A stretch of 64,000 bases of DNA. Source: Candidatus Spongiisociaceae bacterium (GTDB lineage: Bacteria > Actinomycetota > Acidimicrobiia > Spongiisociales > Spongiisociaceae). The stretch covers positions 1,792,001 through 1,856,000 of the forward strand of contig OZ241841.1 of NCBI GenBank assembly GCA_965202665.1. Reading direction: 5' to 3'. Below the pieces are notes generated by a model. That model was not told where the DNA came from. It was given only the letters and a program-made list of their open reading frames with translations, and did not search any database. This document shows, in pieces, positions 13,829-20,811 of this stretch. How positions within the stretch are numbered: position 1 is the first letter of the stretch; every line of letters starts with the position of its first letter. The position numbers and the translations under genes were made by a program.

Positions 13829-14008
13829 CGCCTTTAACCATAGTGGCCGGTTCGCGCCAAACAGGATACTAGTTGAAATCGTCCGCGCCGGGCATATCGG
13901 CAATGCGGATAAGGGGAAGGCTTGGAACGGAGGCCGGGTCCCGGTTTGCCGGCTTCTGTCGCAGACGGGTGATATTCTGGATGGCGCGTCCCCGACCCTA
14001 TGGCGGCT

Positions 14009-15223
14009 ATGAAACGGAATCATCCCTACGGCCTGTCGCCGCATACGCAAAGATGGCTGGCGGCCGCTCCCGTGGAGCATCGCAAGCGCCTCGGCCAGTA
14101 TATGACCCCGGCGTTGTTGCGGGAGAGGCTCTTGGACCATTGCGGCCTTTTTGCGGGCATGCGGGTGCTGGATCCGGGGGTGGGCACCGGCGAGTTCCTC
14201 CGTTCCGTCCAGGGCCGCTGTCCGGGGGCGGAGTTGCACGGGTGGGATGTGGACCCTTCGGTTTTGTCGGTCGCCGCCGAGAACGCGCCGGAGGCGCATC
14301 TCAGGGAGCGCTCGGCCCTGGAACCCTACCGGGGGGAGCCCTTCGATTTGGTGGTGGGCAACCCCCCCTATTTTCAGTTCAACGCGTCGCGGGAGACGCG
14401 CGCCTACTTCGCCCGGGTCATTTCCGGCCGCGTCAATATTTTCTCCCTGTTCTTCCAGGTCGGTTTGGAGGCCCTGCGGCCCGGCGGGCGGTTGGCCTAC
14501 GTGATACCTCCTTCTATGAACAACGGGGCCTATTTTGAGCGATTGCGCGAGTTTCTGATTCAGCGCACGGCGGTGGAATTTCTGGAAATCTATCGCGACC
14601 AGGCAATGTTCGACCACGCCCAGACCCCGGTTCAGTTGCTCGTCCTGCGGAAAGGGGGTGAGGACGCGGGCCGCCACGTGTTCGTAAGGCAAAGCGGGAG
14701 CAACGGTTTTCGGCGAACCATTTTTTCGGAAAACCCGGCTGAGATGGAGGCTTCGTTTTACGGCAGGAGCACCCTGTTCGACCTGGGTTACGAGGCGGTG
14801 ACCGGCTCCATCACCTGGAATCAACACAAGGCGGCCCTCCGGCGTAAGCCCGACCCTCCGGCGGTGCCGTTGATATGGGCGCATAACATCAGGGATGGGA
14901 TACGGTTTGCGACGGACCACAAACGGCCGCAGTTCATCGCCACCGACCGCCCCGCCCTGGTCGGGCCTGCGATTGTGTCCAACCGCATCGTGGGGGCGGT
15001 CGGATCCGCCGAGCTCAGGTGCGCGCTGGTCCCCGAAGGGATGGAGTTCGTGGCGGAGAACCACATAAATGTGATAAGGCGGCACGGGGGCTTTGCGCCG
15101 CAGGCGTCTTGGAACGAGTTGCTGGAGTCCCTGCAGTCTCCGGAAACAGCCGAGCGGGTCCGCCTGCTCACGGGCAACACGCAGGTGTCGGCCACGGAAC
15201 TGACCCACCTGTTACCTGTTTAG
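14009..15223 (+). CDS. N6-adenine DNA methyltransferase (TaqI/Eco57I-like, gamma class), orphan
   Basis: GQY.TP, VLDPGVGTGEF (motif I), VVGNPPY (motif IV), L.PGGRL.YVIP; no adjacent endonuclease. Confidence 0.88.
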   Translation: MKRNHPYGLSPHTQRWLAAAPVEHRKRLGQYMTPALLRERLLDHCGLFAGMRVLDPGVGTGEFLRSVQGRCPGAELHGWDVDPSVLSVAAENAPEAHLRERSALEPYRGEPFDLVVGNPPYFQFNASRETRAYFARVISGRVNIFSLFFQVGLEALRPGGRLAYVIPPSMNNGAYFERLREFLIQRTAVEFLEIYRDQAMFDHAQTPVQLLVLRKGGEDAGRHVFVRQSGSNGFRRTIFSENPAEMEASFYGRSTLFDLGYEAVTGSITWNQHKAALRRKPDPPAVPLIWAHNIRDGIRFATDHKRPQFIATDRPALVGPAIVSNRIVGAVGSAELRCALVPEGMEFVAENHINVIRRHGGFAPQASWNELLESLQSPETAERVRLLTGNTQVSATELTHLLPV

Positions 15224-18024: not shown

Positions 18025-18474
18025 TCAGCGACGGGCGCGGGCTTGGGTTACCAGGGTTAGGAACTCCGGGACCTGGTAGCGGGCTATCGCCTCGCCGATT
18101 ATCTCCAGGGGAAGGTTTTCCAGTTTTCGGAAGCGGATGCAGCTTTTGCCCATGTCCAGCCGTTTGCCGGTGGCCCGGTAGGCCTCCAAGAAACTTTCCC
18201 GGGCCTCGTCGTCGGCGTACACCCCGGTTAGGTAGACGGCCATGTGGTTTTTCTGGGAGGCCAGGGCGGCGTACATCAGCGGCTGGCCGTTGTAGGTGTC
18301 GGGTTGCACCGACAGCGGCACCTCGTAGGTGATCATTCCCCACCGCATCACCTCCTCGTATCCCTCCGGCAGGTTGGCGAGGACGGCGTCCCGCACCGTC
18401 TCGATCGCCTCCCGCCGGTCCGGCGGCAACCCGTCTAAGTATTCACCCACCGTGGCCGCCTCCGAGCGCATCAT
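18025..18474 (-). CDS. DUF1801 (YdhG-like) protein
   Basis: LP.GYEE.M.WGMI.YEVP, ALASQKNHMA.Y, LDMGKSCIRF. Confidence 0.88.
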   Translation of the reverse strand: MMRSEAATVGEYLDGLPPDRREAIETVRDAVLANLPEGYEEVMRWGMITYEVPLSVQPDTYNGQPLMYAALASQKNHMAVYLTGVYADDEARESFLEAYRATGKRLDMGKSCIRFRKLENLPLEIIGEAIARYQVPEFLTLVTQARARR

Positions 18475-18563
18475 CCGCCTCCTTGTCGCCCCGCTCCGTC
18501 AGTCATTCACGCTAGCAGAACCCGTCCCGGTTCCCCCCGGCCGCCGTTCGGGCCGGGGCTGGC

Positions 18564-18592
18564 TTGACCTGCTGTGCGGCGGGGTGTAATAT
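18564..18592 (+). promoter_or_regulatory. Sigma-70-type promoter of the riboswitch leader
   Basis: TTGACC-17 nt-TAATAT. Confidence 0.7.
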
Positions 18593-18608
18593 GCGGGGCG
18601 ACGACGCG

Positions 18609-18686
18609 CTCATCCAGAGCGGTGGAGGGACAGGCCCTGCGAAGCCGCGGCAACCGAGACACCGGTGCCAATGCCTGAACGATGAG
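18609..18686 (+). ncRNA. SAM-I (S-box) riboswitch with minimal or absent P4
   Basis: CTCATCCAGAG..GGAGGGACAGGCCC..GAAGCC..GGCAACC..GGTGCCAA..GATGAG. P1 CTCATC/GATGAG and the SAM-I core are present. Confidence 0.88.
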
Positions 18687-18751
18687 ACAGCCGACGGCGG
18701 AAACTCCGCTCGCGGCGCTTCTGAGGAGCGCGTAGGACGAGAGGAGAACCG

Positions 18752-18856
18752 ATGGGAAACAAACCTCTCCCAAACGCCCCCCGGCGGGGTATGGGAACCA
18801 TGTGTTGTCCCGGCTCTCGGGTGATCCACCCGGGCAGGCCGCGGCGCCGCTCGTAA
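18752..18856 (+). CDS. Putative leader peptide MGNKPLPNAPRRGMGTMCCPGSRVIHPGRPRRRS
   Basis: GAGGAG RBS 5 nt before ATG, directly behind the riboswitch; clustered Met/Cys codons. Confidence 0.45.
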   Translation: MGNKPLPNAPRRGMGTMCCPGSRVIHPGRPRRRS

Positions 18857-18989
18857 CGAACGCACCACCCGAGAGCAAACCCAAGCCCGGCGGCTTGGCG
18901 CGGCGTTCAGAACCCACCCCCTAGGGGCCCCCGCCCCATCCATACCGGCGGGCGCGCCCCTTTCCGCAAACAATCAAAGGAGATGACAA

Positions 18990-19550
18990 ATGACTACAAC
19001 CGCAACCCCCGTGGCCAACGGGGTCAACGTGGAAGCCCTGCTGGGGGCCCGGGACGCCCTGGGGGAAACCCCGGAGGCGGGCCAGTTCACCTGGCGGGCC
19101 ACCAACGAGTGGGTGCATGGAACCCACAGCCGTTCTTCGGTGGAAGGCTATTTCGGCCTGGGCGAAGAGCACGACCACAAGTCGGCTTTCGGCTTTGAGG
19201 CCGACCATCCGCTGGTGTTCGCCGCCGAAGACAACGCGGCCACCCCGGTGGAGATCGTGCTGGTCGGACTGGCCAGTTGCCTGACGGCCGGCGTGGCGGC
19301 GGTGGCCCAGAACCGGGAAATCCAGTTGCGGTCGGTGAAAGCCACCGTGGAAGGCGACATGGACATCGCCGGCATCCTGGGGGCCGACCCCGACGTGCGC
19401 AACGGATTCAGCGACATCCGGGTCACCTACGACATCGACGCCGACGCCTCCCCGGCGGACATCGAAGCGCTGGTGGCGCAGAGCCAGAAGCGGTCGGCGG
19501 TGTTCGACATCGTCACCAACCCGACCAACGTGAGCGTCGCGGTCGCCTGA
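18990..19550 (+). CDS. OsmC-family protein
   Basis: NGVNV, ADHP.VF, TPVE..L.GLASCL, EGD.D..G.LG, RNGF..I.V, RSAVFD. Confidence 0.88.
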   Translation: MTTTATPVANGVNVEALLGARDALGETPEAGQFTWRATNEWVHGTHSRSSVEGYFGLGEEHDHKSAFGFEADHPLVFAAEDNAATPVEIVLVGLASCLTAGVAAVAQNREIQLRSVKATVEGDMDIAGILGADPDVRNGFSDIRVTYDIDADASPADIEALVAQSQKRSAVFDIVTNPTNVSVAVA

Positions 19551-19554
19551 GCCG

Positions 19555-20811
19555 GTGCGTACCACCACCGTCGTAATCGGGGCCGGGCACGCCGGCCTGA
19601 CGGTAAGCCGGTTCCTCGCCGAGCGCTCCATCGACCATGTGGTGCTGGAGCGGGGGGAGGTGGCCCAGTCGTGGCGCGCCCAGCGTTGGGATTCGCTGCG
19701 CCTGCTCACCCCCAACTGGCTGACCCGGCTGCCCGGCCTCTCCTACGACGGAGCCGACCCGGACGGGTTTATGACCATGCCGGAAGTCATCGGGTTCATT
19801 GACCGCTACCGCCGGTTGACGGACGCTCCGGTGCGCACCAACACCCGGGTAACCTCCCTGCGCCCCGCCGACGACGGGTTCGAGGTGGTGACCGACCAGG
19901 GGGTTTGGAACTGCCGTACGGCGGTGCTGGCCACCGGCGGGTTCAACCTGCCCAAAGTTCCGCAGCTGGCCGCCCGGTTGCCCAACTTTATCGACTCGGT
20001 GACCCCCTGCGACTACCGCCGTCCCTCCGATTTGGCGGAAGGCGGGGTGTTGGTGGTGGGGGCGTCGGCCACCGGCATCCAGCTGGCGGAGGAGATTCAC
20101 GACTCCGGGCGGCCGGTCACCCTGGCGGTGGGGGAGCATGTGCGGATGCCGCGCACCTACCGGGGCAAAGACATCTGGTGGTGGATGCTGCGCACCGGCC
20201 GGATGGACGAGCGTTTCGACCAAGTGGAGGATCTGGCCCGCGCCCGGCGGGTTCCGTCGCCGCAGCTGATCGGCTCCCCGGAGCGGCGCACCCTGGACTT
20301 GAACGACCTGACCGGGCGGGGAGTGCGACTGGCGGGGCGGCTGGCCGGGGTGTCCGGCTCCGCGTTGCAGTTCTCCGGGTCGTTGCGCAACAAGTGCCAG
20401 CTGGCCGACCTGAAACTGGGGCGCCTGTTGGATGAATTCGACGAATGGGCCCTGCGGGCCGGTTACAACGGCGAGTTCGGCTGGGGTACCCGCCCGTCGC
20501 CCACCCGGGTGGGGGATTCGCCTCCGCTCGCCTTGGATTTGGCCCGGGGGGAAATCAAAACGGTGCTGTGGGCCACCGGGTTCGAGCCGGACTATTCCTG
20601 GTTGGACGTGCCGGCCCTGGACCGCAAAGGCCGCCTGCGGCACCAAGGCGGGGTGGTCTCCGACTGGCCCGGGCTGTACCGCATCGGATTGAACTTTCTG
20701 CGCCGCCGCAAATCCAGTTTCATCCACGGGGCGGGAGACGACGCCCGCGACATAGCCGACCATCTGGAATCCCACCTGCATCGCCGGGCCCCGGTGGGAG
20801 CGGTTCGATAA
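19555..20811 (+). CDS. FAD/NAD(P)-dependent flavoprotein monooxygenase-like protein (CzcO/MSMEG_0569-like)
   Basis: VIGAG.AGL, RWDSLRLLTPNW, VLVVGASATG.QLA.E, PR.YRG.DI, WATGF..DYSW. Confidence 0.85.
   Translation: MRTTTVVIGAGHAGLTVSRFLAERSIDHVVLERGEVAQSWRAQRWDSLRLLTPNWLTRLPGLSYDGADPDGFMTMPEVIGFIDRYRRLTDAPVRTNTRVTSLRPADDGFEVVTDQGVWNCRTAVLATGGFNLPKVPQLAARLPNFIDSVTPCDYRRPSDLAEGGVLVVGASATGIQLAEEIHDSGRPVTLAVGEHVRMPRTYRGKDIWWWMLRTGRMDERFDQVEDLARARRVPSPQLIGSPERRTLDLNDLTGRGVRLAGRLAGVSGSALQFSGSLRNKCQLADLKLGRLLDEFDEWALRAGYNGEFGWGTRPSPTRVGDSPPLALDLARGEIKTVLWATGFEPDYSWLDVPALDRKGRLRHQGGVVSDWPGLYRIGLNFLRRRKSSFIHGAGDDARDIADHLESHLHRRAPVGAVR

Follow-up and report, generated by a model that had tools for sequence, protein, structure and literature searches.

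A P4-less SAM-I riboswitch predicted to gate a Cys/Met-codon leader ORF upstream of osmC-like and metY genes in the Spongiisociales

In a 64,000-nucleotide stretch of contig OZ241841.1 (assembly GCA_965202665.1, positions 1,792,001 to 1,856,000) of a Candidatus Spongiisociaceae bacterium, hereafter the window, a SAM-I riboswitch is followed by a short ORF with adjacent Met and Cys codons and then by an osmC-like gene. This arrangement raises the question of what the riboswitch controls and whether the short ORF is itself a sensor. The initial annotation had proposed that the riboswitch acts on the ORF rather than on the first structural gene. The comparative evidence assembled below indicates that the element is conserved and very likely works as a SAM-gated leader that is read by a ribosome. 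The parts which that annotation had picked out, namely a promoter, a compact SAM-I aptamer lacking a normal P4, two small hairpins, a GAGGAG motif with a 34-codon ORF containing M-G-T-M-C-C and a gap of about 130 nt before the OsmC gene, were all recovered (Table 1): the codon run occupies 18791-18808, the second hairpin is present over 18715-18731 and the gap measures 133 nt. It had missed two features, the helices S1:S3 and S2:S4, both of which lie 3' of the Cys codons.

Table 1. Coordinates of the features of the leader and the genes behind it, in window positions
Feature	Position	Strand	Remark
Sigma70-type promoter-like site, TTGACC-17-TAATAT	18564..18592	+	pattern match; predicted
5' switching strand, overlapping the P1 5' strand (18609-18614)	18604..18611	+	predicted partner without SAM: 18726-18733
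SAM-I aptamer without P4 (P1: 18609-18614 with 18681-18686)	18607..18688	+	RF00162, 67 bits
Hairpin H1	18690..18716	+	predicted to sequester the anti-SD strand (18704-18712) when SAM is absent
Hairpin H2	18715..18733	+	3' arm pairs with 18715-18720 (P1 formed) or 18604-18611 (P1 broken)
Leader SD, GAGGAG	18741..18746	+	predicted closed with the aptamer locked
Leader ORF, 34 codons; Met at 18791 and 18800, Cys at 18803 and 18806	18752..18856	+	conserved; translation predicted
S1, 5' arm of the 11-bp stem, in the ORF, reads G-S-R-V	18813..18823	+	covariation
S2, directly past the leader stop, partner of S4	18858..18863	+	duplex and swap test
S3, 3' arm of the 11-bp stem	18866..18876	+	no U-tract behind it
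S4, partner of S2	18903..18908	+	alternative helix or pseudoknot with S1:S3
OsmC-like protein, 186 aa, single Cys (C97)	18990..19550	+	PF02566; NF041052 below cut-off
Flavin-dependent oxidoreductase, MSMEG_0569-like	19555..20811	+	TIGR04046, 325 bits, below the 498 cut-off

The promoter-like site is the sole one found at the locus (mean of 0.0 in 50 shuffles), and a TTGAC lies 35-62 nt upstream of P1 in 65 of 67 homologous leaders, a count that depends on the looseness of the pattern (9/67 with the strictest version, 52/67 and 65/67 with looser ones). The genome has no SAM match other than the aptamer behind it, which scores well above the Rfam cut-off of 44.4 bits and has the P4 helix replaced by 3 nt. 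Comparison with the other SAM clan models, which had been suggested as a check, left SAM-I as the best match of the clan in Rfam. PK-2, the pairing of L3 with the 3' tail, is a feature of SAM-I/IV and SAM-IV; this pairing is unsupported (native -10.9 versus swapped -10.88, reached in 46 of 100 swaps), which argues for SAM-I rather than SAM-I/IV. Rfam searches of 18450-19050 at E-values up to 10 recovered, besides SAM-I, just sub-threshold chance matches and no T-box or specifier RNA motif, which speaks against an SAH element, a T-box or a second riboswitch in this interval. Accordingly, we assign the element to SAM-I, with SAM binding predicted.

A search for orthologues across 61 genomes yielded 30 loci. 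The 26 closest osmC orthologues, the one in the window included, all possess the aptamer, the platform and an ORF of 29-35 codons, and RF00162 was confirmed in each of the 20 orthologous loci tested. The more distant loci L027-L029 lack the aptamer, and a paralogue in another family (L030) has both aptamer and leader. Across the order, 117 of 151 genomes (a tally that includes one unpublished genome) contain a SAM match over the cut-off. The order-wide sample comprised 30 automatically gathered loci and 100 more among the matches listed; another 29 matches fell outside that list, and a few of those on it were left out. In 157 loci the search pattern recognised 156 aptamers, of which 141 are P4-less. 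PK-1, between L2 and J3/4, is complementary in 141/141 aptamers, a figure partly enforced by the search pattern used. The choice of start codons relied on the SD score and ignored the peptide; gene classes were assigned from our own motifs, with six labels corrected by hand and representatives checked against NCBIfam and Pfam. The counts given here include closely related genomes and are not independent of each other.

The first part of the answer comes from what stands behind the platform, the start codon of which lies about 55-70 nt past the aptamer. Among 46 metH loci with P4-less aptamers, the gene starts directly at the platform in 32, is coupled to a short ORF in 11 and follows a separate ORF in three. 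The same platform precedes metE directly in five loci and in coupled form in five, and thrC-like genes directly in two. A separate short ORF is present in all 54 osmC-class loci and in 17 of the 21 P4-less metY-class loci. The direct met starts together with the separate leader ORFs imply that the platform SD serves the enzyme gene in one setting and the leader ORF in the other, at equal spacing. Short ORFs with a stop overlapping the metE start were noticed behind the window-type platform in L087, L151, L153 and L155, and the stops of others overlap the start of a methionine-synthesis gene in L045, L058, L069, L114, L117, L130 and L149. Many of these coupled ORFs contain Cys codons, with two adjacent ones before metE, and some are Cys-free; they possibly represent another kind of sulfur leader, one that works by translational coupling.

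The second part comes from the folding of the platform. The minimum-energy fold of the window leader pairs 18604-18611 with 18726-18733, a helix that excludes P1; H1 appears in the free fold and H2 in the aptamer-locked one. In 68 aligned leaders about 94-95% of the cells of this anti-P1 helix are paired as against at most 63% in slid controls, and the tested structure has 15 double changes, a value reached by none of 500 shuffles. P1 and H2, with 99% of cells paired, show zero double changes. When the platform was folded alone for 106 leaders, with the aptamer locked or with anti-P1 formed, locking left the SD less open in 88/106 and more open in 8/106. The mean unpaired probability of the SD was 0.35 in the locked state versus 0.66 with anti-P1, and in the window it was 0.21 versus 0.65. 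A platform fold that excludes P1 is thus supported: it covaries and is predicted to close the SD. Three observations converge on the riboswitch gating the ribosome site of the leader: the platform drives metH, metE and thrC-like starts directly at equal spacing, the anti-P1 helix covaries, and folding predicts closure of the SD. We infer that SAM closes this site, and the original proposal that the riboswitch controls the leader ORF rather than the first structural gene gains support from all three.

What, then, does the ORF itself do? It is SD-led and lies about 160 nt 3' of the promoter. The order-wide sample contains 72 separate leaders, and 67 of these, from 55 genomes in eight families, carry S1 inside the ORF, with either osmC-like genes or metY behind them. 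A frame-blind search found the S1 motif in 68/72 leaders, at 14 different distances ranging from 42 to 84 nt, and in frame in 66 of the 68. Of the two exceptions, one (L161) had its start assigned wrongly, which was put right manually, and the other (L089) is a spurious match past the stop. The codon at position -3, counted from the Ser codon of the stem, is UGU-Cys in 45/67 or AUG-Met in 22/67, that is, a sulfur codon in 67/67; the UGU at 18806-18808 is the window's copy. More generally, in 27 non-redundant leaders Met and Cys make up 70 of the 162 in-frame codons before S1; the other two frames have 6 and 25 such codons, and in the long ORFs of the genome the share is about 2%. The stop codon falls 6-13 nt 5' of S3 in 52/67 leaders. 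The +2 frame is likewise open in 59/67, so that openness by itself is no proof. S1 is missing in five of the 72 leaders. Frame, Met/Cys content and stop position are kept across the eight families, which answers both the question of whether the sulfur codons are conserved in orthologous leaders and the concern that the ORF as such might be unconserved. On this conservation we predict a short leader, apparently translated, with cognate regulatory codons.

Two helices follow this codon run. S1:S3 begins two codons past the Cys pair of the window and has 40 double changes (0/500 shuffles). S2:S4 has a native duplex energy of -14.9 kcal/mol versus -10.8 kcal/mol for swapped partners (0/300 swaps); it is weak in the window (6 bp and -10 kcal/mol, with 0.6 bp predicted on a stall) and poor in several members of the family. 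The gap between S2 and S3 is at most 2 nt in 17/27 leaders and the loop between S3 and S4 at least 6 nt in 26/27, a geometry compatible with both helices forming together as a pseudoknot in most of the 27. We folded 60 leaders under masks for three states: no ribosome, a stalled ribosome and a ribosome at the stop. S1:S3 was predicted in 45/60 ribosome-free leaders, 27/60 with the ribosome at the stop and 0/60 on a stall, the last value being built into the mask; the corresponding values for S2:S4 were 13/60, 4/60 and 24/60.

S1:S3 was rejected as an intrinsic terminator, with a U-tract behind S3 in 0/23 leaders and no such terminator on the plus strand of the region. Hairpins with U-rich tails were noticed by eye behind the P4-containing SAM-I aptamers of L032-L046 and other metY loci, suggesting that these bacteria do employ intrinsic termination. 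A general block of the osmC SD by the OFF fold is not supported either: pairing with the downstream SD region showed no native preference over swapped partners for the Met/Cys run (68/300, a test of low power), S1 (90/300), S2 (94/300) or S4 (199/300). The Cys run pairs with the osmC SD and start in the minimum-energy fold of the window, and such pairing reaches at least 4 bp in 16/60 leaders. A stall opens the downstream SD in 17/60 leaders (3/21 non-redundant ones), and in the window leaves it about as it was (0.55 to 0.52). Of the mycobacterial parallel drawn in the initial annotation, the Cys-codon leader stands, and the pairing of the Cys tract with a downstream SD does not seem to be general here.

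With a Cys/Met codon at a fixed distance from a conserved stem and a SAM switch ahead of it, the sulfur genes are likely on only when both inputs are low, and we would picture this as follows. With SAM bound, P1 and H2 would form, the freed anti-SD strand would pair with GAGGAG and the leader would stay untranslated. Without SAM, the 5' strand would take the 3' arm of H2, H1 would form and the SD would open. A ribosome waiting at the -3 UGU or AUG would then cover the start of S1, blocking S1:S3 and making S2:S4 possible. One that reaches the stop would cover S2 and let S1:S3 re-form, as in the untranslated, SAM-bound fold. As the SAM-bound state must be OFF for targets of the metY type, S1:S3 would be the OFF fold and the stall the ON state, which amounts to a NOR gate: osmC and the flavoprotein gene would be expressed only when SAM and charged Cys/Met tRNA are both low. 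We consider this gate the probable reading. Its weakest step would be the last, in which the OFF fold, within the C-rich spacer (38% C, 24% G), most likely brings about decay or termination by Rho. Since Rho is encoded in the genome and the spacer is C-rich, we propose such termination as the means of silencing osmC, as a weakly held guess.

The alternative that best survives is one in which SAM gates leader translation and translation itself opens the downstream RNA or protects it against Rho, with Met/Cys codons that are minor or constrained at the RNA level. The Cys codon at -3 is always UGU (45/45), which accounts for 24% of the Cys codons in long ORFs of the genome, and Cys codons at -1, which belong to the stem, are UGC in 12/12. 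The bias at -3 could reflect a slow wobble codon and equally an RNA-level constraint. In the same vein, some coupled ORFs behind the window-type platform are Cys-free, and one leader without S1 (L156) has no Met or Cys past its start. Against this, UGU and AUG alternate at -3 without a single aligned base in common, both Cys codons occur among the additional Met/Cys positions from -10 to -4, and stand-alone leaders without a riboswitch retain the Met/Cys run, which is sensible only if the run senses something. We therefore regard a passive role of the codons as unlikely.

The NOR gate also has a mirror image, with expression when SAM is low and Cys/Met sufficient, so that a stall is off, read-through is on and metY and osmC are made when reduced sulfur is available. 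MetY consumes sulfide, which makes a gate responding to sulfur sufficiency plausible. A stall would expose C-rich RNA to Rho, and should S1:S3 and S2:S4 coexist as a pseudoknot, a ribosome at the stop would break it too. However, S1:S3 is common to the untranslated and at-stop states, and it is the stall state that differs; further, the mycobacterial Cys leaders turn on under limitation (Canestrari et al., bioRxiv 10.1101/834739), and Pelagibacter osmC and metY are reported as going up under sulfur limitation (PMC5069961). Together these make the inverted polarity rather unlikely.

That the peptide is the product, a Cys-rich substrate or a carrier of sulfur or metal that the OsmC-like protein and the flavoprotein modify, is suggested by the placement of a short Cys-rich ORF beside a flavin oxidoreductase. 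It is quite improbable given that codons 2-14 are 22% identical as against 86% in the core (12 orthologues), that peptide length varies from 18 to 51 aa and that metY is preceded by a like leader; the conserved S-R-V is accounted for by the S1 stem arm that encodes it. It is highly improbable that the ORF is incidental and that the real gene uses the platform SD as a standby or distant site, in the manner described for the Sinorhizobium metA SAM-II switch with a translation start 74 nt downstream (PMC9373788): an SD belonging to osmC lies about 240 nt further on, and the ORF, which ends in a stop, conserves its frame, -3 codon and stop position. Finally, an ORF that arose by chance or is what remains of a deleted met gene, for which the abundance of open frames in GC-rich DNA and the direct drive of met genes by the platform elsewhere might speak, is largely refuted by the invariant -3 codon and frame and by the window leader lacking similarity to met genes, with no match among 145 downstream proteins and only itself in the genome (next E 1.1); 4/72 leaders have scattered matches of 7-19 aa to downstream proteins (E 0.003-0.09).

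The ribosome-read module is not tied to one riboswitch platform. In six metY loci (L074-L077, L096, L099) the leader stands behind a different and much shorter platform, with the start 11-14 nt past P1, and in L209, L211 and L244/L255 a Met/Cys leader with its stem stands alone, with no riboswitch. This second module is thus separable from the riboswitch. One stand-alone copy (L244/L255, genome G039), which is perhaps leaderless, lies before the gene of a hydrophobic protein of membrane-like character. A strict DNA pattern gave 13 matches in 401 genomes of the phylum, and outside the order most of these look like chance. Among named osmC relatives, 35/80 have the aptamer, 31 of these being alphaproteobacterial and four acidimicrobiial; the named Acidimicrobiia records with a window-type leader are L204, L208 and L230. 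Rfam found SAM in 11 of 20 scanned loci of the named relatives, all 11 alphaproteobacterial. We noticed that the alphaproteobacterial loci (L162-L191, L195; 31 genomes) combine a P4-less SAM-I with the acidimicrobiial platform and that their leaders are remodelled, often ending in Cys-Thr-stop followed by a different hairpin. The S1 motif is left in two of the 31, one of them out of frame, and 14/31 retain a short ORF with a Cys near the end. The OsmC of the window, the alphaproteobacterial copies and most members of the family form one clade with 100/99 support (midpoint root), which points to horizontal transfer between Acidimicrobiia and Alphaproteobacteria.

Turning to the regulated genes, the flavoprotein gene directly follows osmC in 9/9 loci of the window's OsmC group that were checked, and the two likely form an operon. 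Canonical OsmC/Ohr proteins have a second Cys where the window protein has Ser. Its match in PDB, 2opl (a hypothetical protein; E 6e-40), has Ser at that position too, and instead of being a peroxidase the window protein may carry sulfur. Another OsmC-like paralogue, which shares about 30% identity with that of the window, was seen behind a window-type leader and directly before a metY-like gene in L030, L083, L094, L101, L128, L137, L141, L142 and L161. The window genome also has metX and two metY homologues without a SAM riboswitch (C1, near 1539756, 1540925 and 2765551), and only a weak match to the metH fragment used as query. Elsewhere in the window, an ORF on the minus strand (14000-15223) resembles, by eye, an adenine DNA methyltransferase with an NPPY motif, and 12051-13085 matches Glutamine synthetase II (GlnII) over the cut-off.

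Several published systems share one or another part of this arrangement. Loss of P4 in actinomycetotal SAM-I is known and compatible with SAM binding (PMC12714719); the likeness to those elements lies in an aptamer core over the cut-off, and the difference in the platform SD, which here belongs to the leader ORF rather than the enzyme gene, with anti-P1, H1 and H2 being common across the order. SAM-I/T-box(Met) tandems before metX and metY likewise combine two inputs, SAM and the charging of Met-tRNA, under a predicted logic of low SAM and uncharged tRNA present (Sherlock et al., 2022; PMC9481103). However, their second sensor is a T-box RNA, whereas a translating ribosome would take that role here, and the first input would gate whether the second sensor gets read at all. 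The catalogue of tandems in that work comprises RNA aptamers, T-boxes and ribozymes in series, and its main text has no mention of uORF, leader peptide or the stem "attenuat". The SAM-I(Xcc) of Xanthomonas is also a translational SAM-I responsive to Met-tRNA status, but its platform, as described in the part consulted, binds uncharged tRNA-fMet directly, without a leader ORF (Tang et al., 2020; PMC7270179).

As for leaders, the mycobacterial polycysteine sORFs place Cys codons before sulfur genes and use a stall to block an mRNA duplex, but as described they are leaderless and riboswitch-free, with long Cys runs and pairing between the Cys tract and the SD downstream of it (Canestrari et al., bioRxiv 10.1101/834739). 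In contrast, the leader described here is SD-led and predicted to sense Met or Cys, and pairing with the SD does not seem to be general. The LEU element and the cys leaders of Actinobacteria, compared by their described features, resemble the present leader in having an amino-acid codon run with a conserved fold behind it, whether a pseudoknot or an alternative helix, and in lacking a terminator; in the LEU element the Leu run pairs with the leuA SD and no riboswitch is described, and Rho has been proposed for the cys leaders, from which conserved hairpins are reported absent (Seliverstov et al., 2005; passages of PMC1262725). Here, it is a Met/Cys run before osmC-like genes and metY, not a Leu run before leuA. 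The uORFC-8-2 cysS attenuator of Rhodobacterales also has two Cys codons in a stem-linked uORF, but with a U-tract terminator, mostly UGC codons and, as far as the part consulted goes, no riboswitch (Brewer et al., 2021; PMC8632094). Of the attributes of classical leader-peptide attenuators, the cognate-codon ORF and the ORF-overlapping helices are present and the U-tract terminator is not. The element would thus act like a leader-peptide attenuator and falls outside the classical, mycobacterial and LEU types, the last as judged by described features. Our search of the full-text literature, with supplements and most subscription papers outside its scope, found no riboswitch that gates an amino-acid-sensing leader ORF. 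Taken as a whole, we see a little better than even chances for a nested gate in which a metabolite riboswitch, instead of controlling a gene, licenses a ribosome-based Cys/Met sensor of a kind not yet described, with a fixed UGU/AUG codon coupled to a pseudoknot, and which would be terminator-less, portable (with two SAM platforms or alone) and moved with osmC between Acidimicrobiia and Alphaproteobacteria.

If this holds, the output of a riboswitch would be the translation of an amino-acid-sensing leader ORF, a new route to two-input logic that would attain by different means what is attained by SAM-I/T-box(Met) tandems and by the SAM-I of Xanthomonas. The parts of the second module are mutable and sharply defined, comprising one codon and two covarying helices with no terminator, which makes the action of terminator-less actinobacterial leaders, such as the LEU element and the cys leaders, directly testable. 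Control of osmC by a SAM riboswitch and its induction by sulfur limitation are on record for Pelagibacter (PMC5069961). In the Spongiisociales, the gate would make an OsmC-like protein with one Cys and a flavoprotein resembling MSMEG_0569 members of a regulon for sulfur starvation, beside metY.
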